From an uncultured virus (IMG/VR IMGVR_UViG_3300025126_000736) (lineage: Duplodnaviria; Heunggongvirae; Uroviricota; Caudoviricetes), in the IMG/VR virus record IMGVR_UViG_3300025126_000736: a stretch of 64,000 bases of DNA. One strand, 5' to 3'. Below the pieces are notes generated by a model. It saw only the letters and a program-made list of their open reading frames with translations. It made no database searches and was not told the origin of the DNA. The number at the start of each line of letters is the position of its first letter. Position 1 is the first letter of the stretch. Shown here in pieces: positions 17,664 through 63,311 of the stretch. The position numbers and the translations under genes were made by a program.

Positions 17664-18206
17664 TTAAAAACATTCTATCTTATTTGAAACGATAAGTCTT
17701 TGCTGTTGTTTGAATAAATTCTTGTCTTTTTCTATCAATTTTGATGAAATTAATTTATGATATTTCTGAAAAAGCAAGAATGTTGAGTCATTTTTAAAAA
17801 AAACACTGGTAAGCCTATGTTGAAGAGACTTATTTCTTCTTAAATTAATGATTTTTTTGCATAATTTTTTACTTAAATCTTTATTGTTTTGCTTTAATAA
17901 AAGTTTGGCAATTAAATTAACGTGATTATATTCGGCATATTCAAAATAATATGATATAAGATTTTCAATGCAATACTCTGCAATATCTTTTGATATTTTA
18001 TTTTCATTTAAAAGTTGAGTATAAAAACTAAAATCAGATCGAAAAAGTGAAATAATGATATTTCTATAGAAATAAGGTTTTAATTGAACTTCCGTGTTTT
18101 TAACTTCTTTTAATAGTTTTTGATGTAGAACGCAATTAAAACTAGGGTGGCTAATTATCCAATCGAATACGTCTTCAAATGCTTTATAATGAACTTGAGT
18201 TAACAT
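17664..18206 (-). CDS. hypothetical helical protein with KIxxF C-terminus
   Basis: 180-aa ORF ending VSNKIECF*. Confidence 0.6.
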   Translation of the reverse strand: MLTQVHYKAFEDVFDWIISHPSFNCVLHQKLLKEVKNTEVQLKPYFYRNIIISLFRSDFSFYTQLLNENKISKDIAEYCIENLISYYFEYAEYNHVNLIAKLLLKQNNKDLSKKLCKKIINLRRNKSLQHRLTSVFFKNDSTFLLFQKYHKLISSKLIEKDKNLFKQQQRLIVSNKIECF

Positions 18207-24350: not shown

Positions 24351-25361
24351 TTAAAAAACAATTAATCCAAAATCACGTTTAACACGATCACAAGTTTCTT
24401 GAGTGATAGAACGAGATATAATGCTACCTTTATGTAAAATATTAAGAAGTTCTTGCTTGTCGCTCATTAATATTTCTCGTTTTGCACGAATTGGTGTAAT
24501 TAATTCAACTAACAAATCGGTAAGAAGTGATTTTAAAGTTCCATCACCAAGTCCACCAGCGCGATAATTTTCTTTCATTTCTTGTAAATGGATTTTGTCT
24601 TGATAAAAAGCATCTAGGTAAGCAAAAACAACATTTCCTTCTACCTGACCTTTGGATTCAATGGTTAAATGATTAGGATCAGTGTACATTTTTTTTACAA
24701 TTTTTTTAATTTCATTGTTTGTTGAATCAAAATTAATTGTAAATCCAGCAGATTTAGACATTTTTGACTTACCATCAACACTAGGTAGTCGCGACACTGT
24801 ACTTAAAAGTGAAGAACATTTAATAAGTGTATTTTTCCCTGAGACTTGATTGACTTTTTTTACAATTTCATTGGTTTGTTCAATCATGGGTAGCTGATCA
24901 TCCCCTACTGGAATAATTTCTGCATTAAATGCCGTGATATCCGCAGCCTGACTAATCGGGTAATTAAGGAACCCAACGGGGATATTTTCAGAATAAGATT
25001 TATTCTTTTTTTCCATAGAAAGTGTTGGGTTACGTTCCAGTCTTGCAAGAGTGACAAGATTGCTATAAAGCATAGTAAGTTCTGGTAATGCTGGTAATGC
25101 TGATTGCAGACATATTGTTGTTTTTAAAGGGTCAATGCCAACAGCAAGATAATCAGCCATAACATTAAGAATATTAGAGGATACTTTACTTGGTTCATAA
25201 CCATTATCAGTCAACCCTTGCATATCAGCAATGAGAATAGTTTGACTATTGTGTTCCTGTAGTGCAATTCTTTGCATAAGAGAACCCGCAAAATGACCTA
25301 AATGAAGTTTGCCAGTTGCTCTATCACCTGTAAGAATTGTTTTGTTTTTTATTGGTTCCAT
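24351..25361 (-). CDS. trpS: tryptophanyl-tRNA synthetase (TrpRS-II-like)
   Basis: LTGDRATGKLHLGH (HIGH), YPISQAADI, VGDDQLPMIEQT, KMSKS, MYTDP. Confidence 0.95.
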   Translation of the reverse strand: MEPIKNKTILTGDRATGKLHLGHFAGSLMQRIALQEHNSQTILIADMQGLTDNGYEPSKVSSNILNVMADYLAVGIDPLKTTICLQSALPALPELTMLYSNLVTLARLERNPTLSMEKKNKSYSENIPVGFLNYPISQAADITAFNAEIIPVGDDQLPMIEQTNEIVKKVNQVSGKNTLIKCSSLLSTVSRLPSVDGKSKMSKSAGFTINFDSTNNEIKKIVKKMYTDPNHLTIESKGQVEGNVVFAYLDAFYQDKIHLQEMKENYRAGGLGDGTLKSLLTDLLVELITPIRAKREILMSDKQELLNILHKGSIISRSITQETCDRVKRDFGLIVF

Positions 25362-25430: not shown

Positions 25431-26003
25431 TTAAAAATTAAGCACCTTTTGTTCTACAGAAAGCTTTTTATATAATTCTAAGTTATCGTTTTTAAAGTTT
25501 TCCTTTTGATGTAGAGGTAGTGCATTAAAAATAATCTCTGGTATGCCTACTCGTTTAAATTTTTCAGCCATAAGGATTGGGAGATCGCAAGGCTCATAAA
25601 GTAATACTGAGTCATAAGATAATAAAAGCTTTACCACTTCAATATTTCCATATTGTGCAGCACGGAAAAGGGCGCAATTACTACGAGAGGCGGGATTAAC
25701 CCCTAATTCGATCAATGTTTTTACAGTTATGAGATCGTTATAGTGTGCCGCTAAAATAATAAGAAATGAATTATATTTAAAGGCATCAAACCATTTTGTT
25801 TTAATGAATTCATGAATAAATGAAGTTAAGTTATAGCTGTAAAGTTTTGTAATTACTTCTGGGTAATAATTAGTTTTCTCATCTTCATCATTTATGTTTG
25901 GGATGGTTAATTCAGCATATTTAAGGAAATTGGCAATATCTTTTTCATAAATAGACTTAAAAAGCTTTTCTTTATGTTTATCTAACACTAACACTCGCTG
26001 CAT
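25431..26003 (-). CDS. ankyrin-repeat protein carrying an IscB-derived N-terminal peptide
   Basis: LILAAHYNDLITVKTLIELGVNP and ALFRAAQYGNIEVVKLLL ankyrin repeats; first residues MQRVLVLDKHK resemble an IscB N-terminus. Confidence 0.8.
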   Translation of the reverse strand: MQRVLVLDKHKEKLFKSIYEKDIANFLKYAELTIPNINDEDEKTNYYPEVITKLYSYNLTSFIHEFIKTKWFDAFKYNSFLIILAAHYNDLITVKTLIELGVNPASRSNCALFRAAQYGNIEVVKLLLSYDSVLLYEPCDLPILMAEKFKRVGIPEIIFNALPLHQKENFKNDNLELYKKLSVEQKVLNF

Positions 26004-28108: not shown

Positions 28109-28732
28109 TCAAAAATGGCTGATATTTTGGATTAAAATAGCCTTATTATATAAATTTGGGTGAGCTATTTTAAAATTTTCTTTTTTTGAGGCACAAAATG
28201 TATTAAATACAATTTGCAGAGTATTGAAATGACCATTTAATGCACAAGTGGAAAGTCCCCAGAATTTACATTCTGGATCATATTTCTTAACACAATCATA
28301 TGAGAATAGTATTTTTACCATTTCCTCTCTACCATTTTCAATTGCATAAATTATCGAACTATTAAATCCAGAGTTGAGTGGATCGGCACCTAATGATAAG
28401 GCTTTTTTAAAGGTATCTAGGTCATTGTAAATAGTCGCTTGAAGTAAAACATATGAATTGCCAAATGAAGGCTCAAACCAATGATAATGACAAAGCTTAA
28501 GGATAAGGTCATTTCTGCCTAATGCATAAACGCTTTTAATAAGTTGTTTATAATCAATGGGAGTATATTGTGTTTTTAGAAAAGACTTGAACAATGTAAA
28601 AAACAAATCAGAATTTCCACTTTTAGCAGCAATAATTGCTTCTTCTTTTAATTTTGTCAAAGTAAGTCCTTTATCTATTATATTTGTAGAAAATATATTA
28701 ATTGGGATATCTATAATGTAAAAAGCCTTCAA
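28109..28732 (-). CDS. ankyrin-repeat protein, paralog of 25431..26003
   Basis: LLQATIYNDLDTFKKALSLGADP, IIYAIENGREEMVKILFSYD. Confidence 0.75.
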   Translation of the reverse strand: MKAFYIIDIPINIFSTNIIDKGLTLTKLKEEAIIAAKSGNSDLFFTLFKSFLKTQYTPIDYKQLIKSVYALGRNDLILKLCHYHWFEPSFGNSYVLLQATIYNDLDTFKKALSLGADPLNSGFNSSIIYAIENGREEMVKILFSYDCVKKYDPECKFWGLSTCALNGHFNTLQIVFNTFCASKKENFKIAHPNLYNKAILIQNISHF

Positions 28733-33840: not shown

Positions 33841-34206
33841 TTAAACTTCAGTTTCGTCCAAGTCTAATTCAACACTAGCATATCGAATGGTTTCAGCACC
33901 TTTATTATTTTGCTTACCTTTGATTTTTCGCATTTGTTTTAATACGATTTGTGCCGCTTCTTCGATAGTTTTGTACATTTCGTCACCTGTGTGAGAAACA
34001 TGAATGTCGTTGCCAGCAATAGGTACGTGGGCTTTAACTTCTGCTTTGCCTGTTGACTGTGTTGAGTGATCAATAACTGTGACGATAATATCTTCTACTA
34101 CAAAATTTTCAAAATTATCTAAAACGCTTAAGAAATGCTCGTTAATTGAAGAGTTAATCGCGTCTGTCATTGTCATGTTGATTGCTTTTGAAGTGATTTT
34201 TGTCAT
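33841..34206 (-). CDS. hpf: ribosome hibernation promoting factor / RaiA (S30AE family)
   Basis: ITSKAINMTMTDAI...AEVKAHVPIAGNDIHVS...DEMYKTIEEAAQIVLKQMRKIKGK; AGGAG RBS. Confidence 0.8.
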   Translation of the reverse strand: MTKITSKAINMTMTDAINSSINEHFLSVLDNFENFVVEDIIVTVIDHSTQSTGKAEVKAHVPIAGNDIHVSHTGDEMYKTIEEAAQIVLKQMRKIKGKQNNKGAETIRYASVELDLDETEV

Positions 34207-34438: not shown

Positions 34439-34894
34439 TTAAAAACAACTAACTTTGTTGCTAATGATATTCTGAAACAAAAATCGTTCAAATACAGAAT
34501 AAAAGTAAAAAACAACTACGTTAACTGGATATATTTCATCCTTAATTGCAATCTTGCTAATAAGCTCTGACTTATTTGTAAACATTTCTGTTTTTTTTGG
34601 AAATCCATTGATGAATAAAGTAAAATCTATTTTATTAAAAACGCTGGTAAGTAAAATTTCTAGATTAAAGGAGCTAGATCTCACAATAACAGAAAAAGAA
34701 CGACATCGAGCATTACCATCTCTGGATTGTAAATACTCCATAGTTTTTTTAAAGTTATTTTCTTTCTTATCAATAACGAAAAATATATGTTTAAGAAAAT
34801 TTTCTTCTTTAACGGAAAAGCGATTAAAAAGGAAACTAAATTCGTCCATAATTAAACTAATATCAGATACGGAAAAATCGTTTTCGTTATCCAT
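34439..34894 (-). CDS. hypothetical protein with KVxxF C-terminus
   Basis: 151-aa ORF coupled to the HNH gene; ends ISNKVSCF*. Confidence 0.6.
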   Translation of the reverse strand: MDNENDFSVSDISLIMDEFSFLFNRFSVKEENFLKHIFFVIDKKENNFKKTMEYLQSRDGNARCRSFSVIVRSSSFNLEILLTSVFNKIDFTLFINGFPKKTEMFTNKSELISKIAIKDEIYPVNVVVFYFYSVFERFLFQNIISNKVSCF

Positions 34895-35357
34895 GAGATT
34901 TTAACTCTCTATATAAGTCATCATCCATATTTTGTTTTTCATAATTACATAAAGTACAGAATGTAATGTAATTGGATAGTTCGTCTTTGCCGCCTTTGGA
35001 TTTTGGAATAATATGATCCTTTGTCATAAGGACTTCCTCACCTGCTTCATTAATGGCGTAGAGGTTGAAGTGATAGCTTTCGCTTGTAGGAACGCCATGT
35101 TTGTTGAGGCTTCTCTCCTTCGCCATAAAAGAACCTTTAATGTGGCAGATATCACATGATAAAGATTGCTTAAAAACATAATAGCGATCAGACCCCATTT
35201 TCATTAAATCACCATCATAATCTTTTTTAATGGTTTTTAATTTAAAATATTTTGGGTAATCACTAGGGTTAGGAAGAAAATTGAGAATTTCTTCTGGCTT
35301 ATATGTTTCTTTGCGTTCGTAAGTGTTTCCTACTGGCTTTTTTGTTTTGGTTGGCAT
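34887..35357 (-). CDS. HNH endonuclease
   Basis: CDIC...MTKDHIIPKSKGGKDELSNYITFCTLCNYEK. Confidence 0.85.
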   Translation of the reverse strand: MPTKTKKPVGNTYERKETYKPEEILNFLPNPSDYPKYFKLKTIKKDYDGDLMKMGSDRYYVFKQSLSCDICHIKGSFMAKERSLNKHGVPTSESYHFNLYAINEAGEEVLMTKDHIIPKSKGGKDELSNYITFCTLCNYEKQNMDDDLYRELKSHG

Positions 35358-35449
35358 TGTAGTAAATCCAAGTAAATAAAGTATGTTATAATTATAGAGG
35401 ATTGGATCGTAAAGGTCAAAGAGTATTTTGGAAATTTAACTTTAAGAAA

Positions 35450-35644
35450 TTGACAATTATTAAAAATATTATATATTAATTAGTAAGTGTTGAGAGTTAT
35501 CAATCACCTAAAATAAATAAATGAAAATAAATAATTATAAATCAATAACTTAAAAATAGTTAAAAAAATAGGTAATTCGATTATATAGTTATAATTAATA
35601 TAGTTATTTTAGTAGATAAAGGATTTTTTAAAAAACAATGCAAG
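35450..35644 (+). promoter_or_regulatory. CRISPR leader with sigma70-like promoter and IHF consensus site
   Basis: TTGACA at 35450; AT-rich; AATCAATAACTTA at 35540..35552 matches WATCAANNNNTTR. Confidence 0.7.
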
Positions 35645-37170
35645 GTTTACCGCATACGTGCGGCTTTGAAGGTTTCCACTTTTTCCATTTATATATATTA
35701 CCTTGTTTACCGCATACGTGCGGCTTTGAAGAGAAAGAGCACCAATAATAACTTTGTCGTCTTTGTTTACCGCATACGTGCGGCTTTGAAGAATAGATAA
35801 CTTACTATATAGATTATACATTGGGTTTACCGCATACGTGCGGCTTTGAAGATCTGATGCTATCGCGTTTTTATCACCTGATGCGTTTACCGCATACGTG
35901 CGGCTTTGAAGAACCTTCGTTGTCAGATATTTTAACATAATCTAGTTTACCGCATACGTGCGGCTTTGAAGTTGTTTTTTTTGGTTTATTTTAGACTATA
36001 CATGGTTTACCGCATACGTGCGGCTTTGAAGTTGATCGTTTGGTCTCATATCTAAAACGTTGTCGTTTACCGCATACGTGCGGCTTTGAAGGTCAAGTTA
36101 GAATAAAGTCAATTTCTCACATCTGTTTACCGCATACGTGCGGCTTTGAAGTTTCTTTAAGTTGAAAAGTATTTATTTCAAACAGTTTACCGCATACGTG
36201 CGGCTTTGAAGAATAGATTCCTTTTTCATTAAATAGATCTTCTAGTTTACCGCATACGTGCGGCTTTGAAGTGACTCTGGAATGCCGATTCGTTACGCTC
36301 TTAAGTTTACCGCATACGTGCGGCTTTGAAGATCTTCTGTGCATTTCAACATTGATTCTTCATAGTTTACCGCATACGTGCGGCTTTGAAGTTCATCAAT
36401 AATTCCAACTGTGAAATAATTGTCGTTTACCGCATACGTGCGGCTTTGAAGAACTTTACACAAGCGTAGCGCGGTGAAAGTAGGGTTTACCGCATACGTG
36501 CGGCTTTGAAGTCAATCTGATGGCACTCCTCATTCTCATTTTTTAGTTTACCGCATACGTGCGGCTTTGAAGAATTTATCACGTCCACGTTTTACGCCTT
36601 TGCCGTTTACCGCATACGTGCGGCTTTGAAGTAAAATAGATAGGTTAATGCCCTTCTTTATCTTGTTTACCGCATACGTGCGGCTTTGAAGATAAAATCC
36701 ATTTTGCAAAATATCTAAATCAGCGTTTACCGCATACGTGCGGCTTTGAAGAGTATTAGCAGGCGTATAAATAATTAATTTGTCGTTTACCGCATACGTG
36801 CGGCTTTGAAGTTGCAATATGACTATAATTTATTAAAAAAAAGGTTTACCGCATACGTGCGGCTTTGAAGTATGAGTGAAGATCAATTTAGTTATTTTGA
36901 TAAGTTTACCGCATACGTGCGGCTTTGAAGTCTGGTGCTGTTTTAAGAGATATAATTCAATGTGTTTACCGCATACGTGCGGCTTTGAAGAAGTGATTCT
37001 TCATCACTAAAAGTGTATGTATTGTTTACCGCATACGTGCGGCTTTGAAGAAATCCAAATCCTATAGACTCTTGAATGTCAAAGTTTACCGCATACGTGC
37101 GGCTTTGAAGTCTTATATTTAAAGCCTCCTCTTGTTATTGCTTGTTTACCGCATACGTGCGGCTTTGAAG
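35645..37170 (+). CRISPR. CRISPR array, 26 identical 27-nt repeats GTTTACCGCATACGTGCGGCTTTGAAG and 25 spacers (mostly 33 nt)
   Basis: Direct 60-nt periodicity; CCGCA-TACG-TGCGG hairpin followed by 8-nt handle CTTTGAAG (type I-F-like). Confidence 0.99.
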
Positions 37171-37320
37171 TGAAATGAAGGTATTGGAAGAATTCTGATT
37201 ATGAAACATATCTAAGTTGTGCGTTGGATTGTATTTTAATGATGGAAAGTCTTGATAAAGAAAAAAGAAGAAAATTGAAAAAAATATTTTTAATGAATTA
37301 TTTAAATGGAGAATAGAGAA

Positions 37321-37623
37321 ATGAAAACAAAAATAATAGTAGACAAAGATTGTAAACTTAAAAGACCGTTACTTGAAGAAGAAGGTAAAAGGACTGGGTA
37401 TAGCATTCAGTTATTAGATATTAATAATATACTGCCTGTTAGTATCAGAATGACGCAAAATATAGTATTACACAATGTTGAAATTTTTAAAAATTTTGGC
37501 GTTTACAAAAATTTAAAGGGTGAAAGAATGCGATATTATGTTTATGAAAATAAGATTGACTTATTTGTAGAAGAATTAAAAAAACACAAATATACGCATT
37601 TGAATAAATGGGGGCTAAAATAA
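37321..37623 (+). CDS. small basic hypothetical protein encoded inside the CRISPR array
   Basis: Track ORF 37306..37623; GGAG RBS 9 nt before ATG 37321; lies between repeats 26 and 27. Confidence 0.6.
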   Translation: MKTKIIVDKDCKLKRPLLEEEGKRTGYSIQLLDINNILPVSIRMTQNIVLHNVEIFKNFGVYKNLKGERMRYYVYENKIDLFVEELKKHKYTHLNKWGLK

Positions 37624-37681
37624 TTATAAAAATATCTTTAAATAAAATGGTATCTCACTTAAGAATGATATCTGAAATTAA

Positions 37682-37828
37682 GTTTACCGCATAAGTGCGG
37701 CTTTGAAGAGTGATGTCAGCACTTGCGAATACCGCTTGGGCGTTTACCGCATACGTGCGGCTTTGAAGTTTTGTCGTAGACGAAAGCCGACACAATAACC
37801 AGTTTACCGCATAAGTGCGGATTTAAGG
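37682..37828 (+). CRISPR. distal CRISPR segment: 3 repeats (variant, consensus, degenerate terminal) and 2 spacers of 33 nt
   Basis: Repeats at 37682 (ATAAGTG variant), 37742 and 37802 (GTTTACCGCATAAGTGCGGATTTAAGG). Confidence 0.95.
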
Positions 37829-37925
37829 TTGTATTTAAAAAAAATATATAGTCGTGCAAAGGTATTTATGTAACAATTTAAATTTAAATTATTTTTATGC
37901 AATAAAAAATAAACAATAGAAAAAG

Positions 37926-37955
37926 TTGACTTTATGTTTTATGCTGATATAAACT
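37926..37955 (+). promoter_or_regulatory. putative cas operon promoter
   Basis: TTGACT at 37926 followed by a TATAAA/TAAACT -10 candidate. Confidence 0.5.
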
Positions 37956-38018
37956 AATTATATAAAAGAAGTTTTTAAGAAAAATAAATCATTGTATTGT
38001 ATAAGGAAAGACAACGTA

Positions 38019-40658
38019 ATGAAGGCAAATAAAACTCAATCACTAATAAATCACAGTAGAAAAATAGAGGATTTATCTTATAAAATACTGGATAATTTGA
38101 GTATAAATTATAATGATTTTCTTCCAGAAAAAACAATAAAAAAAATAATAAAATATGTGGCACTGTTCCATGACATAGGAAAAGTAGATCCTAATTTTCA
38201 ATTATTTATTGATGATAAAGCAACGAGTGATTATTCTAGTAATGGTGTGCATTTAAGTAAAAAAGGATTTTCTTTTGAGGATTACTTTAGGCATAATGAG
38301 TTATCTTTTTTCTTAGTAAATGAGTTAGTTGAGAAAATAAATGGACTAAATGCAATTCAATTAAAAATAGTTAAAAACATAGTGCTTTGGCATCACGCTG
38401 CCCCCATAAGAAAAGAAAGTATTACGTCTTCTTTTATTAAGGGAAAGCTAAGGCCGTCAAAAGATTTATTGAAGATTAATTTTGAAAAATATATTAATGA
38501 GATGAATGAGCCAGATTTAAAATTAAGAGATTTTGAAAACATTTGGTGTTGTGATGAATACAATATGTATAAATACAAAATGTTTTACAGTGAAGACGCA
38601 AGAGATAAGACTTTAGTAGATATAAAAGACGATATTAATATAGAGGCGACAATATCATTAATTAAAACAATAATAATAACTGCTGATCGCTTAATATCAT
38701 CTTTAGAGGGAAGAATTGATAATTTTGAAAATATTTTTAAAGATATTTTTAGTGAGAATTTGGAAGAAAGTAATTTATCAAAACAAATAGGATTAATGGA
38801 AAAGAATTTTTATCCAGAAAGCGCACAAAGTAAAAAGCAGAGTAGTGCTTGTAAGGAATTATTAAAATTTAAAGACAGAATATCAATATTGGATGCCCCT
38901 GCTGGTGCAGGAAAAACAAAAACTTCATTGCAGTGGGCTAAAATAAATAATGCAAAAAAAATATATTACATTGTGCCTAGGGCTATTATAGCTGAGGAAC
39001 TTTTTCAAGAAATGAGAAAAGATTATTTACCTTCGCATGTAAAATATGAGCTTGTGACGGGTGATAAAAAAATAAGATGGGATGGAAAAAAAGAGGTAGA
39101 ATTAGATCATGATAGTGTATTATTTAATTCAGAGATAATATTTACGACAATAGACCAAGTTATTAAGTCAGTGACTACGCATAAAAATATAACACTTTTG
39201 CTTGATTTAATGTTAAGTCATATAGTTTTTGATGAATATCATGAATATTATAAAATGTCTGGAATTGACTTATTATTTGCTGAAATAATAAGATTGAAGG
39301 GGTTAATGAAGGAGCCAAATACATTAATTATGTCAGCTACTCCGAATTATTATATGTTAGAGAATTTTTTAGGAATATATAATAAAAGAAGCAGTAATAA
39401 TTCAATAGTATGTTTTGAAAGTGTAAACCAAGAAAAGTTTTTGATTGAGTATTTGCCTTATGAGGAAAATGATTTTATTACAGCTAACACTATTTTATTT
39501 GAACAAGAATGTTCTGACTTAAAATTAAAAAGAGCTGAGGTTGATAATATTGAAAAAGAAAAGAATCCGTTTTTCCAAACTCATAAAAATGATATAAAAA
39601 CAATAGTTATTTCAAATACTGCAACAACTGCACAATTGTCATATATAGTGAATGGTGAGAAAGAAAAGTCATTATTAGCACATTCAAAATATAATAAGTC
39701 TGCTAAAAAAGATATATTAAGTAATATAAAAAAGGAATTTAAGTTATTAGATAGTAAGGAATGCACTGTGTTGAGGAGTGGCCCTATTGTCCAAGCATCA
39801 TTAAATATAACATCAAATAAATTAATTACAGAAGCAACTACAATTGAAAATACTCTTCAGCGATTGGGTAGATTAAATCGTTTTGGTGATAAAATTGTTG
39901 GAGAATTTATTATAGCGATATCAAGTAATTTTTTTATTGTAGGAGATGATTATAAGGTCAAAGATAGTAAGGTATTTGATTTATTAGGGAAGAATAATTC
40001 TAAAAAATCAAGTATATTATGGTTAAAATTTTTACAAAAAGAATTAGGAGTAAAAGTTGGCTTAAAAACAAGTTTTAGTATAAAGGAAATGTACGATATT
40101 TATAAAGGATTTTATAGCAAGGAAGAACATTTGGAGGTATTAGGTGAAGAATTAATAGTTTCTCTTAGAGATAGTTGTAAAAATATAGATAAAAACATTG
40201 TAGACCCAATCGAATTAATAGGTAAGAAAAATATAAAAGAAAAGGTAGTTAAGTTATCAAAACATTCATTAAGATCACAAGGATTTTACACTAAGATGGC
40301 GATTTACAATATGAATGAGAATTCTATGGTATTGGATAATGAATATATGGAGGAAGTTTCAATATCAAGAAGAGATTTGCTTTTATATAATGAAGATTTT
40401 AAATTTATAAGTGATACAAAGAAGAAGCTTGATATTATTTATAAAGATATGAAGAAAAGTGAAATAAAAAGAATAAAAAAACTAAACGATCAGCAGTTTT
40501 TGAGTTTATCTAGAGATTTAAGTTGTCCAATATTTGTATCATATAGTTTGGAAGACTTAGAGAAAATGAATAAGAGTGAGCAAGATGAAGAATCTATAAT
40601 TTATATAAAATCAAAAAAACAAGATGTAGGTTATATAAAAATAAAAAAATTAAAGTAA
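38019..40658 (+). CDS. cas3: Cas3 HD nuclease-helicase (no N-terminal Cas2 domain)
   Basis: LINHS, HDIGK, RHNE, WHH, ADRL HD motifs; APAGAGKT, DEYH, SAT, QRLGRLNR helicase motifs; track ORF 37992..40658, ATG at 38019. Confidence 0.95.
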   Translation: MKANKTQSLINHSRKIEDLSYKILDNLSINYNDFLPEKTIKKIIKYVALFHDIGKVDPNFQLFIDDKATSDYSSNGVHLSKKGFSFEDYFRHNELSFFLVNELVEKINGLNAIQLKIVKNIVLWHHAAPIRKESITSSFIKGKLRPSKDLLKINFEKYINEMNEPDLKLRDFENIWCCDEYNMYKYKMFYSEDARDKTLVDIKDDINIEATISLIKTIIITADRLISSLEGRIDNFENIFKDIFSENLEESNLSKQIGLMEKNFYPESAQSKKQSSACKELLKFKDRISILDAPAGAGKTKTSLQWAKINNAKKIYYIVPRAIIAEELFQEMRKDYLPSHVKYELVTGDKKIRWDGKKEVELDHDSVLFNSEIIFTTIDQVIKSVTTHKNITLLLDLMLSHIVFDEYHEYYKMSGIDLLFAEIIRLKGLMKEPNTLIMSATPNYYMLENFLGIYNKRSSNNSIVCFESVNQEKFLIEYLPYEENDFITANTILFEQECSDLKLKRAEVDNIEKEKNPFFQTHKNDIKTIVISNTATTAQLSYIVNGEKEKSLLAHSKYNKSAKKDILSNIKKEFKLLDSKECTVLRSGPIVQASLNITSNKLITEATTIENTLQRLGRLNRFGDKIVGEFIIAISSNFFIVGDDYKVKDSKVFDLLGKNNSKKSSILWLKFLQKELGVKVGLKTSFSIKEMYDIYKGFYSKEEHLEVLGEELIVSLRDSCKNIDKNIVDPIELIGKKNIKEKVVKLSKHSLRSQGFYTKMAIYNMNENSMVLDNEYMEEVSISRRDLLLYNEDFKFISDTKKKLDIIYKDMKKSEIKRIKKLNDQQFLSLSRDLSCPIFVSYSLEDLEKMNKSEQDEESIIYIKSKKQDVGYIKIKKLK

Positions 40659-40678
40659 ATAAAAAAAAGGAAAATAAA

Positions 40679-41650
40679 ATGGAAAAAGTTGAAGGAATAA
40701 AAAGTGTTGATTTTTTAATAAGGGCTTCAGGAAATGGTGTTGTTAACTGGAATGGTACCACTCCAGTGCGTGGTTTGGATGGTAAGGAATTAAATAATCA
40801 TATGTTGCCAAAACTAAGAGGTTATAATAATGAGACAGGTAAAATAAAAGAAGAAAATGGATATCGTTATAAAAAATTAGCAACTGAGATAAATTTTAAA
40901 GAAACCCCGCTATATGTTAGTCAGAATTGTATAAGACATCATTTATTTAAAGACCAATCAAGTGATATGCATTTTGCTTCAAAAAAAGGAAGTAATTTGG
41001 ATTCAAAGTTTTTACTAATGTCAATTAGTGGTTTACTGAGAGGCTATGTTATACCAAGCACTCAATGTAAAAGAAAATCAGCATTAATAATGACTGATTT
41101 TGTTGACGAATTAGGAAATGGAAATTTTGAACAATTTGGAAATTCTGGTGAAAAAGATTCTAATTCAATTTACTCTAAAACAACGTTTGGAGAGACAAAA
41201 TATAATGCTAAAGGATCTATATCAATTGAAGACTTGCAGTTTATATCATTGGATAAGAAATTTGATAGAGAATCATATGTTGTAAAAAATGAAGTAGAGG
41301 GTCATAAGTTAGCAAAAGAATTAACGGAATTTTTGAAAGAACTTGACCCATTAAGTAATAGTAAACCTTTAGCTGAATTTGGAGAATACTATAGAAAGGG
41401 AAGCATTTATAGAGAGTGTGAAAGCGGAATATTAATAAATCAAGATGGGTTAAAAATATTAATAAAAATACAGCTTGAGTTAATAGAAAACTTATCTATA
41501 AAGCAAGCAAAGGGCTGGTTGCAGGTGGAATCTTTAGAATTGGATTATAATAACTCTTCAAAAATGTTTAGACTTGAGAAAAACAAGATGGAAGTATTAG
41601 AGGATTTAGAGGACGATTTTGCGGTATACTACGTAAAGAAGGGGGAGTAA
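40679..41650 (+). CDS. cas7fv: type I-Fv (I-F2) Cascade backbone Cas7fv
   Basis: GIKSVDF...GVVNWNG...NHMLPKLRGY...TPLYVSQNCIRHHLF...LGNGNFEQ...LQFISLDKKFDR, recognisably like Shewanella putrefaciens Cas7fv. Confidence 0.93.
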   Translation: MEKVEGIKSVDFLIRASGNGVVNWNGTTPVRGLDGKELNNHMLPKLRGYNNETGKIKEENGYRYKKLATEINFKETPLYVSQNCIRHHLFKDQSSDMHFASKKGSNLDSKFLLMSISGLLRGYVIPSTQCKRKSALIMTDFVDELGNGNFEQFGNSGEKDSNSIYSKTTFGETKYNAKGSISIEDLQFISLDKKFDRESYVVKNEVEGHKLAKELTEFLKELDPLSNSKPLAEFGEYYRKGSIYRECESGILINQDGLKILIKIQLELIENLSIKQAKGWLQVESLELDYNNSSKMFRLEKNKMEVLEDLEDDFAVYYVKKGE

Positions 41651-41703
41651 CATAGCTGATATTTAATTAATTTAAATCAGATAAGTTATTTAGGAATAAA
41701 ATT

Positions 41704-42738
41704 ATGATAATAAAAATAGTATATGAGTCAAAATGGGGGAACTCATTTTTGGATGGTATCGCTGGTGAAAATAGAAATTATGCAGTGTCGTTATCTAAAA
41801 TGAATAACGGAAGTAATAAGAATAATGCAAAATCAATATATAAAGAAAGGGATATTTCTATAAACACGGTGTATGGTTTGTTATATCGTTTCCTTGGCGC
41901 AAGGAAGCCATTGTTTAAAATGTTGGAAGAAATAAATAATGAAGATGTTTTAGGGAAAATAATAGACGAAGATAAAATTAGTTTTAATAATGAAATAAAG
42001 ACAAAAACAGATGAATTAGTTTTTTTAAGAAGCACGATGTTGAGTAATGATCAAAATAGTTATTCAGGCATACCAGATGAGTCAATATTATTAAATAATG
42101 GTATACAAGAGATATTTAGTATTTTCGAATACAGTAGAGCAGAATTAATTAATTATATTGTTAATAACAATAAAGTGTTAAAGAAAATAAAAAATATATC
42201 AATAATTGAGTTGTCAGAAAAATTAGAAAACGCAAGAAAAGATAGTGATTTCAAGATAAATGATAAAGACCAAGTTGAATTATTAAGTAATATAAATAAT
42301 TTACTATTTGGTGTTCCTTTAATTGTAGATAAATCTAACTTAATGTTGGTCGCATTCAATAAAATGTCAATTGATTTTTTTTCAAACAATACTATTAATG
42401 AAAAAGATTTGAGATTTTTATCAAGCAAAAAAACATTTGCGGGGATAAGTTTGAATGGAAATTCATTTACTTTAAAAGATTTTATGAAAAAGTTTTCAAA
42501 TTCAAAAATAGTATATGGAAATCCATATAAGACAGATTTTTGGGTAGAAAATCCAAGTAATGGAAAAAACATGAAATTTAATAAAGGGTTAACAAAGCAA
42601 AACGGTGTATTAACAATTGATATTGACATTGATTATGATGAATCATTAGAATTAAAAAAGTTAATAGATTTTGCTGGTGTCCCCAGTTTTTATCTGGGGA
42701 AAAAGGGGTTTGCATATATAGATGAAATAATAATTTAA
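41704..42738 (+). CDS. cas5fv: type I-Fv Cas5fv
   Basis: I.YES.W.NSFL N-terminus, TVYGLLYRFLG, AGVPSFYLGKKGFAYI C-terminus. Confidence 0.88.
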   Translation: MIIKIVYESKWGNSFLDGIAGENRNYAVSLSKMNNGSNKNNAKSIYKERDISINTVYGLLYRFLGARKPLFKMLEEINNEDVLGKIIDEDKISFNNEIKTKTDELVFLRSTMLSNDQNSYSGIPDESILLNNGIQEIFSIFEYSRAELINYIVNNNKVLKKIKNISIIELSEKLENARKDSDFKINDKDQVELLSNINNLLFGVPLIVDKSNLMLVAFNKMSIDFFSNNTINEKDLRFLSSKKTFAGISLNGNSFTLKDFMKKFSNSKIVYGNPYKTDFWVENPSNGKNMKFNKGLTKQNGVLTIDIDIDYDESLELKKLIDFAGVPSFYLGKKGFAYIDEIII

Positions 42739-42749
42739 GGAATAAGAAA

Positions 42750-43373
42750 ATGTATTATGAATATTTAATTTTTAGCGAAATAATGCCAACTAGATTAACC
42801 TTGCATTCTGTGGTTTCTCATTTTTTTGGAACGAAAGACTTAAGTAAAATAAAGTACAGAGTAGAAATGGAAGCTAATATAATAAGGATAAAAACCGATA
42901 AATTTTTAGAAGGTGATTTTGAAATAGAATTGGTTAATTTAAAAAACAAAAAATTTAAATGTAAATTATTTAAAGTTAATGAATGTAAGAATATTGATTT
43001 CAAAGAAGATTCTTATACTGTTTGTGGCATTATAGAATATGGAGTTAATTCATTAGCTCCAATAAAGGAATCAGTGAAGCGAGTGAGATGTAAGCGTTGT
43101 CCTATACATTTAGGCAAGTTTCAAGGTGGGTTAGAGAAGATTTTTAAGGAAAATATAGAAAAAAAAATGGGCGTAAAAGTAATTGAAATGACAAACACTT
43201 CATTTAATAGAATGCCTTCAGAAGAATTGCTGAAAGATAAAGTACAGTTAAATAATTTAATTTATATGAATTTGAAGGTTAAAGTTGTTAATAAAGATCT
43301 TTTTAATGAACTTCAGTATAAATCTATTTTTCAGAAAAAAAGCTATGGACTTGGAAATATAAATATTATATAA
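42750..43373 (+). CDS. cas6: divergent Cas6 family endoribonuclease
   Basis: Last gene of the cas operon; C-terminal IFQKKSYGLG G-loop; N-terminal LHSVVSHFF. Confidence 0.7.
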   Translation: MYYEYLIFSEIMPTRLTLHSVVSHFFGTKDLSKIKYRVEMEANIIRIKTDKFLEGDFEIELVNLKNKKFKCKLFKVNECKNIDFKEDSYTVCGIIEYGVNSLAPIKESVKRVRCKRCPIHLGKFQGGLEKIFKENIEKKMGVKVIEMTNTSFNRMPSEELLKDKVQLNNLIYMNLKVKVVNKDLFNELQYKSIFQKKSYGLGNINII

Positions 43374-43572
43374 GTAAAAAGAAATTTGATTTAAATCCAA
43401 AATATAAAAAAAAGAAGTATTATGTTATGGTGGATAACTATTAAAGAATCAGCTTGCATTTTAAATAGATATATGAGGGAAAATATTGCATAAATAATAT
43501 AAATAACTCTTTTATAATAATTAAATAGTAAGCTTAATTAAATAAAAATAATCATTAAATAGAGGTGGCAAA

Positions 43573-44001
43573 ATGAATGGGCTTAGTAAATTAGAAAAAA
43601 AAGATTACACAACAGTGTTAATTATAAATAAACTTTTGAAAGAATATCCAAATAAAATTGATTTACGTCATTTAGATTTGTATGAAGATTTTTCTATTAT
43701 TTATGATGATGTTGGAAAAAAGAAATTTGCTAGTTATTTTAGAGAATCTGTTAAGGGGTTGAATGAAAAAAAAATAATATCAATAAGTAATAATGATTAC
43801 GAAACAAGTAAAAACAACACTTTGAGCGGCTCAGGAGAATACTCATTAGCACTCAATATAATACTAAAAGAAGCAGGGTTAGAAAAAATAGAAAAATCGA
43901 GCTTAATTAAAATTATTCCAAAAGACATTAAGAAAGGACTAGTAGATGCCGCAACAGCAACATTGATGAAAAAAGCAATAGATTATATTTTTGGTATTTA
44001 A
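43573..44001 (+). CDS. hypothetical protein
   Basis: 142-aa ORF, GAGGTG RBS. Confidence 0.6.
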   Translation: MNGLSKLEKKDYTTVLIINKLLKEYPNKIDLRHLDLYEDFSIIYDDVGKKKFASYFRESVKGLNEKKIISISNNDYETSKNNTLSGSGEYSLALNIILKEAGLEKIEKSSLIKIIPKDIKKGLVDAATATLMKKAIDYIFGI

Positions 44002-44147
44002 TGGATTCAAATTAATAAAAATAAGAAAGTATGATCACATTTATATGTGATTAAAAGTTAGTAAAAAATAAGATAATTACAAAATAACAGCAAATAATTT
44101 AAATAAAAAAATCCATATTTGATTAAAAATATAGATTTTTATTTTAA

Positions 44148-44315
44148 TTATTTAATTAAGTAGTGCGTTGTAATTTTTTGGTCAAAAAACTTTTTGGTAA
44201 TTGTTTTTACTCGACAAAAGCAAAGCACTTTTGTTTTTGTCATAAATGATTTTGCAGAACCAACAACCACAGATCTTGGCAAAAATATAAAATGTTCTTT
44301 TTCTTTAATCATCAT
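44148..44315 (-). CDS. small hypothetical protein (55 aa, not in the ORF track)
   Basis: AAGGGTGG RBS; MMIKEKEHFIFLPRSVV...HYLIK*; TTGACT promoter upstream. Confidence 0.45.
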   Translation of the reverse strand: MMIKEKEHFIFLPRSVVVGSAKSFMTKTKVLCFCRVKTITKKFFDQKITTHYLIK

Positions 44316-47122: not shown

Positions 47123-48343
47123 ATGTCATTAAGCTTTTTACTTGAAAAAATCCATACGGTCAATGATTTCATTGCACTGTGGGGTGAGGACTTCCCATTA
47201 TTAAAAGAGTTGAAAACGACTATTCAAGATAAAGAGTGGCATGGTGAAGGTGATGTGCATATTCATACTGATTTAGTGCTTTACGAGGTGTATAATATTA
47301 TTAATGACAAGTTATGTAACTTGTGTGAAGATGATAAGATTGCGCTCATTTTAGGCGCTATATTTCATGATATTTGTAAGCCACTTACGACAAAAGAAAA
47401 AGAGTTGAATGGAATTATTAGAGTGGTTGCGCCAAAGCATGAAGAGTATGGTCGAAATTATTTATTTTATAAATTAAATACAATAATTAAAAATAAAAAA
47501 ATATTTAATAACGTATTAGGTATTGTAGGATTTCATCAAACACCCAAAATGTTAGTAATTAGGAACCAGCCAAAAGGTAAGTTTTTTCAACTCGCAAGAC
47601 GAGTGCCATTAAAACTTATTTATCTGTTAGAAATTGCAGATATAAAAGGTAGAACCTGCCCAGACAAAGAAAATCAAATTGATTATTTAGAATTATTTAA
47701 AATATATGCCCAAGAATATAATTTATGGGACGCAAACAATGTATATAAAGATGAAAAAGCATTTATTGACTCTGAATTGACTGATTTTTCTGACTTGACT
47801 AAGCAATATGTGTTTTCTGAATATTGTCGTCAATTTGAAAAGGGAGCAATAGTTTGTCCAGAAGAAGAAATAGCAAGATCTTATCAGTATAGAAATGGTT
47901 TTCCTCACCTAATTGTGAATTGTGGTGTGTCAGGTGTGGGTAAATCTACCTATATTGAAGATAACTATAAAGAGTATAATGTAATATCATTAGATGGGTT
48001 AAGAGAAGAGTTGCTTGGTTCTAGATCAGATCACAGTCATGAGCGAAAAGTATTAGACGAAGCCAAGGCAAGATTAAAAGTATTGCTTGCTAAAAAAGAA
48101 AAAATAATTTGGGATGCAACCAGTTATCGTTCTGATTTTAGAAAGGTGCCATTGGGTTTAGGTTTTAATTATAGGGCTTTTACCGAAATTTCATTATTTA
48201 ATAAGACAAGAAAGGATATATTGGCGCAAAATAAACAAAGAGATACAGATGTTACTGAAAAAATTATTGATATTCAAATGAAAAAATTTGAAGTGCCACA
48301 TATTGAAGAATGTCATAACATTAAAGAAATATATGGCTTTTAA
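47123..48343 (+). CDS. HD-domain phosphohydrolase fused to a P-loop (AAA_33/polynucleotide kinase-like) domain
   Basis: QDKEWHGEGDVHIHT, FHDICKP, ADIKGR; CGVSGVGKST, ISLDGLR, WDAT. Confidence 0.85.
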   Translation: MSLSFLLEKIHTVNDFIALWGEDFPLLKELKTTIQDKEWHGEGDVHIHTDLVLYEVYNIINDKLCNLCEDDKIALILGAIFHDICKPLTTKEKELNGIIRVVAPKHEEYGRNYLFYKLNTIIKNKKIFNNVLGIVGFHQTPKMLVIRNQPKGKFFQLARRVPLKLIYLLEIADIKGRTCPDKENQIDYLELFKIYAQEYNLWDANNVYKDEKAFIDSELTDFSDLTKQYVFSEYCRQFEKGAIVCPEEEIARSYQYRNGFPHLIVNCGVSGVGKSTYIEDNYKEYNVISLDGLREELLGSRSDHSHERKVLDEAKARLKVLLAKKEKIIWDATSYRSDFRKVPLGLGFNYRAFTEISLFNKTRKDILAQNKQRDTDVTEKIIDIQMKKFEVPHIEECHNIKEIYGF

Positions 48344-53596: not shown

Positions 53597-55123
53597 ATGC
53601 AAAAAAACAAAAGTAATGATGGGCAATATTACGTTTATGTCCAAGACATAGATGGAACTCCGCTTATGCCGACCAAGCGTTTTCGCAAAGTGAGACTTTT
53701 ATTAAAAAAAGGTGAGGCTAAAGTCGTTTCTTACGACCCATTCACCATTAAAATGCTTTATAATGTAGGAAAAGAAGTTCAAACGCTTAATTTGGGCATT
53801 GATACAGGCACGTCAAATATTGGCGTTTCCGTCACAACAAATGAAGGTAAAGAATTGCTTTCTTCTACATTTAAAACAAACACATTAAAGATAAAAGGCA
53901 CTATGGAAAAACGCCTTTCTCATAGACACACAAGAACACGACTCAAACGAGAAAAGAAAAAACGTAGAGCCATTGCCAATAACACTCATTTTAAGGGTGT
54001 TAAAGAATTTATGGCCTATGGCGCAAAAACCACCACAAAATACAAAGTAATTCGTTCTTCAATTTGTCGCTTAGAAAAGAAAGTTAACGCTGGTAAATTA
54101 TCAAATACCGCGCAACATTGCCTTGACAATCATATCAATGTAGTCAACAAAATAAAGAAAATATTGCCCATTAAAAACGTAGTGGTAGAATATGCTTCAT
54201 TCGATCTTCATAAGTTAATTAACCCCAGTGTGAAAGGAGTTGATTATCAAAAAGGGGCGCTTTACAATGAGTTAAATCATAAATCTTATGTATTGAGTAG
54301 AGATGATCATACTTGTGTTTTGTGTAACAAAAGAAAAAAAGATAAGTTTCTTGAAGTACATCATGTTATTTATAAATCTAATGGTGGTGCAGATCATTTT
54401 AATAATATGGTGACGTTACACAGTGAATGTCATAAAAAAGTGCATAATGATGTTAAAATAGAGGAAAATCTTTTTAACATAATTAAAAAGAGAGATATTT
54501 TAAAAGAGACTCTTCAAACAAGGCAAGCCACTATTTTAAACAGTGTTATGTCACGATTTTTTCTATTTTTACATAATAATTTTGAGTATGTAGAAGAAAC
54601 CTTTGGTTATGAAACAAAAGCAAAACGTTATGAATATGGGATTGATAAATCGCATAATAATGATGCATTTGTTATTTCCTTTGGGAATAATAAGCCCAAA
54701 AAATTAAGTCGTGCGGTGGAAATTGAATACGAACAATTTGCCAATAACAAGCGTGTATTCATTTATGCAACGACAAAAAGAAGGTATACCTCCATTATTG
54801 ATGGTAAAAAAGTCACTGTTTATAATCGAAAAAAAGCAATGAACCAAAAAGAAGATTCTCTTGAAGAGTTCAGAGAAAAATACACTCAAAAACACGTTTC
54901 TCAACTAAAAGTATTGAAAGGTACAGTTAAGTTTCAAGATCGGTCACATTATTCGTTTGAAAAGGGAGATTTGGTTAAGCTCAATGGAAAATTAAGGGTA
55001 ATTTCAGGCAATACCAATAACGGAAAGTATGTAAGATTGAAGAATGAGGGGACAACTAATTTCAGTCCTAAAGAGTTAATAATGCTTAACCCTCGCCAAA
55101 ATTTCAGAAGGATTAATTGGTAA
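53597..55123 (+). CDS. iscB: IscB RNA-guided endonuclease (PLMP/RRXRR, split RuvC, HNH)
   Basis: GTPLMPTKR; RuvC-I LGIDTG; Arg-rich bridge helix; RuvC-II VVEYASFD; HNH EVHHV..SNGG.D...N..TL...CH..VH; RuvC-III KSHNNDA. Confidence 0.93.
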   Translation: MQKNKSNDGQYYVYVQDIDGTPLMPTKRFRKVRLLLKKGEAKVVSYDPFTIKMLYNVGKEVQTLNLGIDTGTSNIGVSVTTNEGKELLSSTFKTNTLKIKGTMEKRLSHRHTRTRLKREKKKRRAIANNTHFKGVKEFMAYGAKTTTKYKVIRSSICRLEKKVNAGKLSNTAQHCLDNHINVVNKIKKILPIKNVVVEYASFDLHKLINPSVKGVDYQKGALYNELNHKSYVLSRDDHTCVLCNKRKKDKFLEVHHVIYKSNGGADHFNNMVTLHSECHKKVHNDVKIEENLFNIIKKRDILKETLQTRQATILNSVMSRFFLFLHNNFEYVEETFGYETKAKRYEYGIDKSHNNDAFVISFGNNKPKKLSRAVEIEYEQFANNKRVFIYATTKRRYTSIIDGKKVTVYNRKKAMNQKEDSLEEFREKYTQKHVSQLKVLKGTVKFQDRSHYSFEKGDLVKLNGKLRVISGNTNNGKYVRLKNEGTTNFSPKELIMLNPRQNFRRINW

Positions 55124-61492: not shown

Positions 61493-62047
61493 TTAAAAAT
61501 GACCAATTTTAACACTAATATTATATTGTTCAACCTTTTTAATAATATTGTCAATATCTTTATTGTTAATAATATTAATGGAATCAGTTGAAATTCCATG
61601 TTCAAATAAGAATTTAGTGACATGAAGTTGGTTATAATTGTAAGATAATACAATAGGATGGTTTTCTGGATCTAATTTTTTATTAATGAAAGGTAGTGCA
61701 GGTATAATAAAATTAATGTAGCCAAATTCACAAGCTCCAACATAACATTTGAAAAATGACAATAAATAAGGAGTTTTTATTAAATTGTGTCTTTTTAGCA
61801 TTATTTGAAAAAACTCTGGTTCTTCAATTTCAATTTTTTTTAGATAAAATAAATGAAATAATTCTCCTGAATCAAAACAGTTTTCTTCTAAAAAAGAAAA
61901 AATTAATCCAACAAGATCAGGATCAGTAATTTTTTTATGATTTTCTATAATGGTTTTTTGAAATAAAGAGTCATCAATATTGTTAGTTTGATGGTCTAGG
62001 TATTTTTGTATATAAGATCTTAGATCCCTATCAAGAGTGATTTCCAA
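61493..62047 (-). CDS. degenerate ankyrin-repeat protein
   Basis: ACEFGYINFI, PIVLSYNYNQLHVTKFLFEHG; ends SVKIGHF*. Confidence 0.65.
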   Translation of the reverse strand: MEITLDRDLRSYIQKYLDHQTNNIDDSLFQKTIIENHKKITDPDLVGLIFSFLEENCFDSGELFHLFYLKKIEIEEPEFFQIMLKRHNLIKTPYLLSFFKCYVGACEFGYINFIIPALPFINKKLDPENHPIVLSYNYNQLHVTKFLFEHGISTDSINIINNKDIDNIIKKVEQYNISVKIGHF

Positions 62048-62061
62048 TTAAGCATTCCTTT

Positions 62062-62658
62062 TTAAAATGTAGATAATTTTTGATTAATATTATATTTATA
62101 AATACTTGATAATATCATTTCTTTATGCACTAGTCCATTATTTTTATTAAAAACATTTAAAAATGCAGGTTGCGAAAGTAAGTAGGATGTTATATTTAAA
62201 TGATTAGAATGGAATGATAGAGATACAGGATCAATTTCAGTAGAGATAATGTCAAAATTGTAATCGCACATATATCGAACAATATCGATGCGACCATATG
62301 TGCAGGCAGTATGAAAATAATATTCCAATGCTGTTTCAAGTTCGAAATTATCAAAAAAAATAATATTTTCAGATTTTTTTAATATAATTCTTGTTATGTC
62401 TAAATTGCCTTCTTTAATGCAGTTTAAAATAAAACTTTTATCCAACAATAGTCGTTCAGGACTCAATGAAGTTAATATATGACAGCAAATTATAAAAGAG
62501 TCTTTATATTTTATTGTTTTATTATTTTTAATAAGCCAATTTAAAAAATCCATAATTTCTTCTTTTTTGGAGTGACAACCAACAATATACATTAAATGAT
62601 TTTCAATATTTGCTTTTAAAAAGCAACTTGTGCTAAAGTTATTGTTTGTATAAGGCAT
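62062..62658 (-). CDS. ankyrin-repeat protein
   Basis: CIKEGNLDIT, ACTYGRIDIVRYM, SFHSNHLNITSYLL; ends NQKLSTF*. Confidence 0.7.
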   Translation of the reverse strand: MPYTNNNFSTSCFLKANIENHLMYIVGCHSKKEEIMDFLNWLIKNNKTIKYKDSFIICCHILTSLSPERLLLDKSFILNCIKEGNLDITRIILKKSENIIFFDNFELETALEYYFHTACTYGRIDIVRYMCDYNFDIISTEIDPVSLSFHSNHLNITSYLLSQPAFLNVFNKNNGLVHKEMILSSIYKYNINQKLSTF

Positions 62659-62672: not shown

Positions 62673-63311
62673 TTAAAAATCATGTAATTTATTTTGAATG
62701 TCATACTGTTTTATTTTTAAAAGAACATTATTTTTATCAGGAATATTTAATTTTAAAAATAATTGAAATATTTTTTCTTTTTTTATTAAAAATGAGGCAA
62801 TATGTGGTTGCTGATGATCAAATGCTCTGGATATTTGATTTACGTGAATACTTGTTGTTTCTTTATACGTGTTGTAAATAAAATCAACAATACTAATGTG
62901 ACCAAATCTACAGGCCGTGACAAAATAATGATTAACCCTAGTATGTTTATTAAAAACGTCAAGGAATCCTTTTTCATTTTCGTATTTTTCAAATATTAAG
63001 ATAACAATATTTAATTCACCAATCTCGATATATGTGTCAAGAAACCCAGTAGATAATTTAGAAGGAGAAATATTGCTAGATGAGAGAATTTTGTGACATA
63101 TATCGTAGCTTTTTTTATATTTAATTCTATTATGGTTTTTAGAGAGCCACTCTAAAAAAAAGACTTGCTCATCACTACTCAATCCATTATTAAGAAAGCA
63201 TTTAAGGTGGGTTTCAATATTTTTCTTTGAAAAACTTTTTGCATTAAATGGAAGTTCTAATTTTAATTCATCCGTTGTATACCTCATATAATCTAATCCT
63301 AAACTTAACAA
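62673..63311 (-). CDS. ankyrin-repeat protein
   Basis: ACRFGHISIVDFI, AFDHQQPHIASFLI; ends QNKLHDF*. Confidence 0.7.
   Translation of the reverse strand: MLSLGLDYMRYTTDELKLELPFNAKSFSKKNIETHLKCFLNNGLSSDEQVFFLEWLSKNHNRIKYKKSYDICHKILSSSNISPSKLSTGFLDTYIEIGELNIVILIFEKYENEKGFLDVFNKHTRVNHYFVTACRFGHISIVDFIYNTYKETTSIHVNQISRAFDHQQPHIASFLIKKEKIFQLFLKLNIPDKNNVLLKIKQYDIQNKLHDF

Follow-up and report, generated by a model that had tools for sequence, protein, structure and literature searches.

The window, our term for the whole 64,000-nucleotide (nt) stretch of DNA from an uncultured virus record (IMG/VR IMGVR_UViG_3300025126_000736), carries at 35450..43373 a CRISPR–Cas locus without cas1 or cas2. Judging from its sequence, this locus appears to be a member of a separate I-F2 lineage and not a canonical I-F2 system that lost Cas2. 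The explanation that we favor, and consider probable, is a distinct I-F2 lineage on AT-rich plasmids of very large size. In full, this lineage would have cas3-cas7fv-cas5fv-cas6(e-like)-cas1-cas2-array; its representative in the window lacks cas1-cas2. We take it to be a real, under-described I-F2 variant that is probably active: it probably still attacks its stored targets, and it may no longer learn new ones.

The original prediction, made from the letters alone, had listed a leader, an array, cas3, cas7fv, cas5fv and cas6. Profile, fold and repeat analysis recovered all of these. The features are as follows, where L003 is one of the two related loci described below.

35450..35644, + strand: AT-rich leader, upstream of repeat 1
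35540..35552, + strand: integration host factor (IHF) consensus site, 105 nt upstream of repeat 1
35645..37170, + strand: main CRISPR array, 26 identical 27-nt repeats and 25 unique spacers
37171..37681, + strand: AT-rich interrupting stretch of 511 nt between the main array and the trailing repeats
37306..37623, + strand: open reading frame (ORF) of 105 amino acids (aa) inside the 511-nt stretch, no family, weak DNA-binding-like leads only
37682..37828, + strand: three older repeats (1, 0 and 4 mismatches to the main repeat) and two 33-nt spacers
38019..40658, + strand: cas3 of I-F2 type, HD and helicase, 879 aa, without a Cas2 domain (profile and motif reading)
40679..41650, + strand: cas7fv, 323 aa, branching separately from Cas6f-linked Cas7fv
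41704..42738, + strand: cas5fv, 344 aa (profiles and alignment to PDB 5O6U)
42750..43373, + strand: cas6, 207 aa, apparently Cas6e-like rather than Cas6f (fold and family profile)
43573..44001, + strand: ORF of 142 aa, standing where L003 has cas1-cas2; weak PADLOC match only (E 0.0017)

The effector genes of the window match only I-Fv profiles. Cas7fv reaches 384.8 bits against a cut-off of 200 for NCBIfam NF040577. Cas5fv matches its PADLOC profile at E 3e-50 and lies above the cut-off of PF20158; aligned to chain F of 5O6U, it has Q117/K258 at Q113/K253, the residues that read the protospacer-adjacent motif (PAM), with positions counted by hand on the alignment. There is no cas8, as predicted, with neither a match nor room for one in the operon. 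Cas3, whose likely start is the ATG at 38019, aligns to PADLOC's Cas3fv profile (951 positions, E 2e-171) no earlier than position 105, and from residue ~40 to the 882-aa Cas2-truncated Cas3 construct given in PMC12956352. No likeness to Cas2 was seen at its N-terminus (HHalign 0.1% against 68 Cas2f domains), which bears out the earlier reading of a Cas3 without the Cas2 fusion. Its motifs, HD (H51-D52), Walker A (296), DEYH (405), SAT (439) and QRLGRLNR (614), are intact, again as first read, and the four interference genes, together 1,753 aa, are all full-length frames. Three hallmarks of type I-F2 are therefore present, namely the Cas7fv backbone, a Cas5fv with a helical PAM-reading domain and the absence of Cas8; the Cas2-Cas3 fusion, Cas6f, Cas1f upstream of cas2-3 and the 28-nt repeat with 32-nt spacer (28/32) were not found. 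The type I-Fv assignment of the original prediction holds for the Cas7fv/Cas5fv core, but the Cas6e-like Cas6 and an array of 27-nt repeats and 33-nt spacers (27/33) put the locus in a separate lineage.

The most unusual feature of the locus is this Cas6, which its model and profiles indicate to be Cas6e-like. None of the Cas6f profiles of PADLOC, NCBIfam or Pfam matches it, and the ESM Atlas groups it with PF08798 (Cas6e) clusters. With an AlphaFold model of the protein, 8 of 8 Foldseek matches at E<=0.001 were Cas6e/Cse3, as was the best VIA-align match (Z 8.2, root-mean-square deviation 5.3, 164 aligned); identity in structural alignments to Cas6e was only 9-12%. Cas6f was not among the top 50 fold matches, which is an absence from a list only. 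A profile of the 73-member family of this Cas6 scored 90.8% against four Cas6e and 1.8% against 74 Cas6f, and 10 of the 73 members match PF08798 while none matches a Cas6f family. Among the 15 close members, neither His19 nor a C-terminal glycine loop varies; E. coli Cas6e uses His20. The window repeat folds into a 5-bp stem, a 4-nt loop and an 8-nt 3' tail, although the hairpin energy alone is within the range of shuffles (z -1.3), and E. coli I-E repeats likewise have a 4-nt hairpin loop. Type I-E Cas6e (Cse3/CasE) is thus the best structural and profile match of the window Cas6. In contrast to type I-E, the locus has no Cas8e, Cas11, Cas7e or Cas5e, and the 3' tail of its repeat is I-F-like.

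Two loci of relatives, L003 and L004, came from a metagenome scan. L003 runs from the end of cas3 through cas7fv, cas5fv, cas6, cas1 and cas2 to an array whose repeat differs by one base from that of the window. Relative to it the window is rearranged: the window array precedes cas3, whereas the L003 array follows cas2. L004 has the same Cas6 type, an unfused Cas3 of 858 aa and degenerate 27/33 arrays, with no cas1 or cas2 within 20.6 kb of its 63-kb contig. The Cas6f hidden Markov model (HMM) matches neither locus. By comparison, among GTDB I-F2 loci (the best 80 of 286) Cas6f is present in 76 and the window type of Cas6 in 0, and 64 have a Cas2 domain in a frame longer than 800 aa. Some 25 clusters of Cas7fv share 60-72% identity with that of the window and rank above canonical ones. 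In a Cas7fv tree of 53 rows, 28 variant-side rows (including the window, L003 and L004) separate from 25 Cas6f-linked rows with SH-aLRT 99; this tree is unrooted, L004 sits on a long branch, and of the Cas6f-linked rows 22 are a random draw from 73, with three others added. When IMG/VR and GTDB were scanned with single proteins and with the repeat, no close relative turned up, and a search of 5 and 401 GTDB genomes with the Cas6 profile, which had no positive control, gave no match. A broader group of related Cas6 and Cas1 proteins (P0016-P0076, P0221-P0301) was also seen, some on contigs of 300-740 kb.

A further instance seems to stand unremarked in the tables of a preprint on megaplasmids of 1.3-1.6 Mb with 25.7-29.6% guanine plus cytosine (GC) (Guitor et al., bioRxiv 10.1101/2025.09.30.679422, PMC12633466). 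These list for plasmid pMEGA4 a complete 'type I-Fv' system in consecutive ORFs 568-573, given as Cas2, Cas1, Cas6, Cas5fv, Cas7fv and Cas3. The top hits are a P. aeruginosa Cas3-AcrF3 entry for Cas2, ICP1 Cas1 for Cas1, the E. coli I-E Cascade for Cas6, and 5O6U for Cas5 and Cas7. As listed, pMEGA4 has the same order as L003, cas3-cas7-cas5-cas6-cas1-cas2, and likewise a separate Cas2. It shares with the window a separate Cas3, Cas7fv, Cas5fv and an I-E-like Cas6 in the same order on an AT-rich carrier; in contrast, the cas1 and free cas2 that follow cas6 in those tables are absent in the window, which is found in aquifer runs. The table rows cited here file the system as I-Fv and carry no remark on its Cas6 type or variant status, and the window repeat was not found in the supplement text of PMC12633466. 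The window cas7fv has no DNA match in complete E. coli genomes.

The I-F2 system of S. putrefaciens CN-32 (PDB 5O6U, 5O7H, 9G44; PMC12956352) has in common with the window Cas7fv, a PAM-reading Cas5fv, an I-F2-type Cas3, neither Cas8 nor Cas11, and a 60-nt repeat-spacer unit. The window differs in its Cas6, which appears Cas6e-like and not Cas6f, in its unfused Cas3 and in its 27/33 array; its relatives have a separate Cas2 and a third-lineage Cas1 after cas6, and the window itself has no adaptation genes. In the parts of PMC12956352 cited here, I-F2 is defined by the Cas2-3 fusion and Cas6f2, Cas5 Q113 and K253 are the PAM readers, and a Cas2-truncated Cas3 docks on the I-F2 Cascade in a solved structure. 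The same text gives 27/32 for I-F2, which the canonical loci tallied here do not show. We did not find the variant as a named one in the literature searched, whose coverage left subscription journals mostly outside; an I-F variant between I-F1 and I-F2 that PMC12669027 mentions, with its gene set given in Extended Data Fig. 1 only, may or may not be that of the window.

The predicted absence of cas1 and cas2 from the 64-kb window stands. With tblastn, three queries each for Cas1 and Cas2 produced chance matches only, and HMMs on all six frames were negative, while the same HMMs find both genes in L003. As candidates for a hidden Cas2, the 142-aa ORF (HHalign 0.09%) and the 105-aa ORF (0.15%) were both ruled out. 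The adaptation genes of L003 are themselves distinctive. Its Cas1 scores above the general Cas1 cut-off and below both the I-E and I-F cut-offs, has ICP1 Cas1 as its best phage match, and sits, together with 17 close clusters and a further 13 rows at greater distance, on a long branch that is separate from both Cas1e and Cas1f (100/99). Its free Cas2 scores 82% against the I-F Cas2 domain and 1.2% against Cas2e. An I-E module is thereby not supported for L003: the Cas1 belongs to a third lineage and the Cas2 is I-F-like. Clusters of this Cas7fv and of this Cas1 coincide in the length of their longest contig (47286, 6787, 10065, 6665 and 6933 nt), indirect evidence that the two sit together in further loci.

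Array geometry bears on which integrase wrote the window array. Canonical I-F2 arrays were 28/32 in 66 of those tallied, with 32 nt in 1248 of 1285 spacers. The arrays of the window, L003 and L004 are 27/33, with 33 nt in 70 of 77 spacers and in all 21 of those of L003. In the main array of the window, 22 spacers are 33 nt, two are 32 nt and one is 34 nt, and the whole window, with the trailing repeats, has 33 nt in 24 of 27. Because the 27/33 geometry is common to the window and L003, these sequences point to the lineage's own integrase as the writer of the window array; a host I-F module seems unlikely because such a module would be expected to add 32-nt spacers. A 33rd spacer base derived from the PAM, as in type I-E, was considered and found no support, since A/T takes the first position in 68 of 77 variant spacers and likewise in 1003 of 1285 canonical ones. 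The unfused Cas3, which the original prediction had taken as a mark of lost adaptation, is instead a lineage trait, because L003 and pMEGA4 have cas1 and cas2 and yet an unfused Cas3.

Within the main array the predicted 26 identical repeats and unique spacers were found, with no similar pairs among the 25 spacers and no self-match at <=7 mismatches. The trailing repeats at 37682-37828 had been absent from the earlier account. They probably once formed the trailer end of a single array that has been interrupted, because the last of the three has degenerated whereas the 26th repeat has no mismatch; their candidacy as a regulatory mini-array against the cas promoter was dropped, as no match was found. 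In the 511-nt stretch, which is possibly an oversized acquisition, a short open frame runs into the ORF at 37306-37623, like a piece of a foreign operon inserted between repeats. In each of two DNA runs, 37084-44200 lies on a single contig; the array-to-cas arrangement is therefore not a join error, although both DNA runs may themselves be the source of the window.

RNA-library contigs from two runs covered the array and cas genes in 25 of 30 and 23 of 30 bins, with zero depth at 34500-35471, the three bins before 35472, in both (contigs only), which suggests that the array and cas genes are transcribed and that the leader drives the array. A sigma-70-like site at 35450-35477 in the leader matches 11 of 12 consensus positions; in this region 48 sites of the kind occur, compared with 56.8 in shuffles. 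The IHF site of the original prediction is present, and the L003 leader has an exact site on the opposite strand at a comparable distance. Its weight is limited, however, by 11 exact matches across the 64-kb window and by the 5-7% of shuffled leaders that hold one by chance. Directly upstream of the leader on the opposite strand stands an HNH gene, 34887-35357 (-), with no depth in the two RNA runs and no sign of belonging to the CRISPR system.

From these parts we propose how the system would work. The leader would drive transcription of the array, and the Cas6e-like nuclease, judging from its fold and invariant His, would cut at the hairpin base and release 60-nt CRISPR RNAs with an 8-nt handle and a 33-nt guide; this handle appears to line up with that of type I-F. 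By analogy to S. putrefaciens I-F2, Cas5fv, six Cas7fv and Cas6 would form a Cas8-less Cascade, Cas5fv would read a GG-type PAM, and the Cas2-free Cas3 would dock on Cas7/Cas5 and degrade the target. The array would have been written by the lineage's Cas1-Cas2, later lost or separated, recently enough for the repeats to be identical. Any new spacers would be supplied by a co-resident relative.

The carrier is probably a giant AT-rich plasmid of a gammaproteobacterium, and the mobile carrier of the original prediction is thereby supported. The window has a GC content of 28.6%, and most of its ORFs are without a family. One of its genes matches five PLSDB records only, each of 0.8-1.3 Mb. The tryptophanyl-tRNA synthetase (TrpRS) of the window is ~63% identical to Vibrio and Photobacterium proteins, and a Cas6 homologue and a Cas7fv homologue both come from the 949,422-nt record of Neptuniibacter sp. 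QD37_11. DNA of the window was found in aquifer metagenomes.

What the system targets is probably rival AT-rich plasmids and phages, in keeping with spacers of 31% GC. Spacer searches gave no significant match in phages or plasmids (best E 0.05, outside spacers), 16-nt chance matches only in the fetched loci, and none in the window. A bias of spacers toward the antisense strand was considered and dropped (17/27, 15/21 and 17/29, none significant). The role first proposed, a weapon between mobile elements, is still the likely one if the megaplasmid preprint is taken as a guide, although no protospacer was found here. According to the text of PMC12633466, CRISPR components vary among the pMEGA plasmids, and spacers match other plasmids and the cas genes of other pMEGAs.

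Several points weigh against a distinct plasmid-borne lineage. As DNA it is known from three loci only (the window, L003 and L004), the L003 sequence lacks the start of cas3, and gene context was seen for only 3 of the 28 variant-side Cas7fv rows. The Cas6 model is of middling quality (predicted local distance difference test 74, template modelling score 0.45), and a profile of the 15 closest Cas6 members only gives 42.7% against the four Cas6e (0.2% against Cas6f). Membership of pMEGA4 was set by gene order and the structural hits listed in its tables. The 64-kb window shows no replication or transfer gene, and no protospacer, and hence no PAM, was found.

The strongest competitor, which we regard as unlikely but worth serious attention, is a complete but split system, with the lineage's cas1-cas2 elsewhere on the same large replicon and still adding spacers. 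The element, of which the window shows 64 kb, may approach 1 Mb; the order of the locus differs from that in L003 as described; and identical repeats with a kept IHF consensus would suit an array still in use. However, 0 of 99 listed Cas1 relatives have a longest contig of 138,961 nt, the length listed for the window's Cas6 and Cas7, an indirect argument. In addition, the leader through spacer 1 into repeat 2 lies on one contig in two DNA runs with no joint listed at the leader end, and the depth of that contig equals that of the cas genes (48.6 vs 49.3; 40.9 vs 38.5); contigs drop rare variants, and the runs may be the window's own source. The lack of that length among the 99 listed Cas1 relatives and the full-depth leader both fit a recent loss of cas1-cas2, and neither proves it. 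Taken alone, the loss of adaptation genes is nothing unusual for a mobile element. Type IV-A3, one of the adaptation-less systems on phages and plasmids treated in the review PMC11656645, likewise has a mobile carrier, a locus without cas1-cas2 and a probable role in competition between elements; it differs from the window, which keeps a Cas3 nuclease and whose array geometry points to an own-lineage integrase, not a host module. The supply of spacers in trans by a host I-F (or I-E) Cas1-Cas2, as known for type IV-A3 and as the original prediction had proposed, would draw on that precedent for in-trans acquisition by plasmid systems (PMC11656645), on the IHF consensus and on the I-F-like repeat tail. 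We nevertheless judge it quite improbable, and the claim is not supported: the 33-nt spacer length of the window is that of L003, which has its own Cas1-Cas2, and not the 32 nt of canonical arrays, and an IHF match arises in ~5% of shuffles.

It is also unlikely, less so than host supply, that the carrier is a jumbo phage whose system acts against competing phages or host defences. Cargo of the kinds seen in the window (RlaP-like nucleotidyltransferase, HD-kinase, HNH, TrpRS and HPF) occurs in PHROGs, an adaptation-less canonical I-F2 system resides on a 363-kb phage, and a related Cas1 resides on a 162-kb phage. Yet a scan of 59 window ORFs gave one marginal tail match (E 0.0009) and otherwise no virion or packaging family, the window repeat and Cas6 are unmatched in IMG/VR, and the PLSDB matches noted above are to plasmid records. 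Least probable of all is a decaying relic without function. The missing adaptation genes, the interrupted array and the lack of identified targets would suit it, but four full-length frames, intact catalytic motifs and identical repeats do not, nor do RNA-library contigs that cover the array and cas genes in two runs and not 34500-35471.

Phage-borne and canonical loci provide further context. The 363,531-nt phage record L005, with Cas6f, a 28/32 array and no Cas1, is of the canonical I-F2 kind. Together with L006, L021 and L051, it is one of the canonical Cas6f I-F2 loci without a Cas1f or Cas2 match upstream of cas3; adaptation loss recurs in the canonical lineage too. In the 162-kb phage record L086, a 511-aa ORF that looks TnpB/Cas12-like by eye accompanies a 28/32 array at 8466-11666, and the Cas1 there is 39% identical to that of L003 and falls on the same long branch. 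At 10804-16340 of L004, two heterogeneous arrays of 27-nt repeats flank cas3 beside a type I restriction-modification-like cluster.

The window also holds genes of other kinds. Translation and RNA-repair cargo, comprising an RlaP-like nucleotidyltransferase, TrpRS, a ribosome hibernation factor and an HD-kinase (Pnkp-like), lies at 1316-2644, 24351-25361, 33841-34206 and 47123-48343. Six tandem genes of ~400 aa with signal-peptide-like starts occupy 8883-15343 (+), the first of which scans as an RCC1-repeat protein, and an IscB-like gene (RRXRR and HNH) lies at 53597-55123 (+). An ending like K-[IVL]-x-x-F-stop is common to otherwise different ORFs (11 of 85 frames of >=100 codons; 18 of 85 end in Phe). 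Those at 4726-5184, 6477-6935, 17664-18206, 25431-26003, 28109-28732, 34439-34894, 61493-62047, 62062-62658 and 62673-63311 are all on the - strand, and several are ankyrin-like. A sorting or secretion signal is a possible role for this ending.

More tentatively, and with less confidence than we place in the lineage itself, the locus may represent a type I variant, chimeric and so far unnamed, that is at home on giant plasmids. It would combine an I-F2 core, a Cas6e-like Cas6, a 27/33 array, an unfused Cas3, a third-lineage Cas1 that also occurs in phage-borne type V-like loci, and a free I-F-like Cas2. Such a variant may retain the state that preceded the Cas2-Cas3 fusion, and its cas1-cas2-less copies may keep learning from co-resident rival megaplasmids. 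If true, nature would have provided in these four genes a Cas2-free Cas3 tool: a DNA-deleting system of only four proteins, whose CRISPR RNA hairpin is unlike that of I-F2 tools in use. The lineage would also mark a class of giant AT-rich replicons that has barely been sampled beyond the gut. The Cas2-Cas3 fusion and Cas6f count as constant hallmarks of type I-F; this lineage would show that the modules are exchangeable, and would provide a natural experiment on the purpose of the fusion, for example in primed acquisition, and on how spacer length is controlled.

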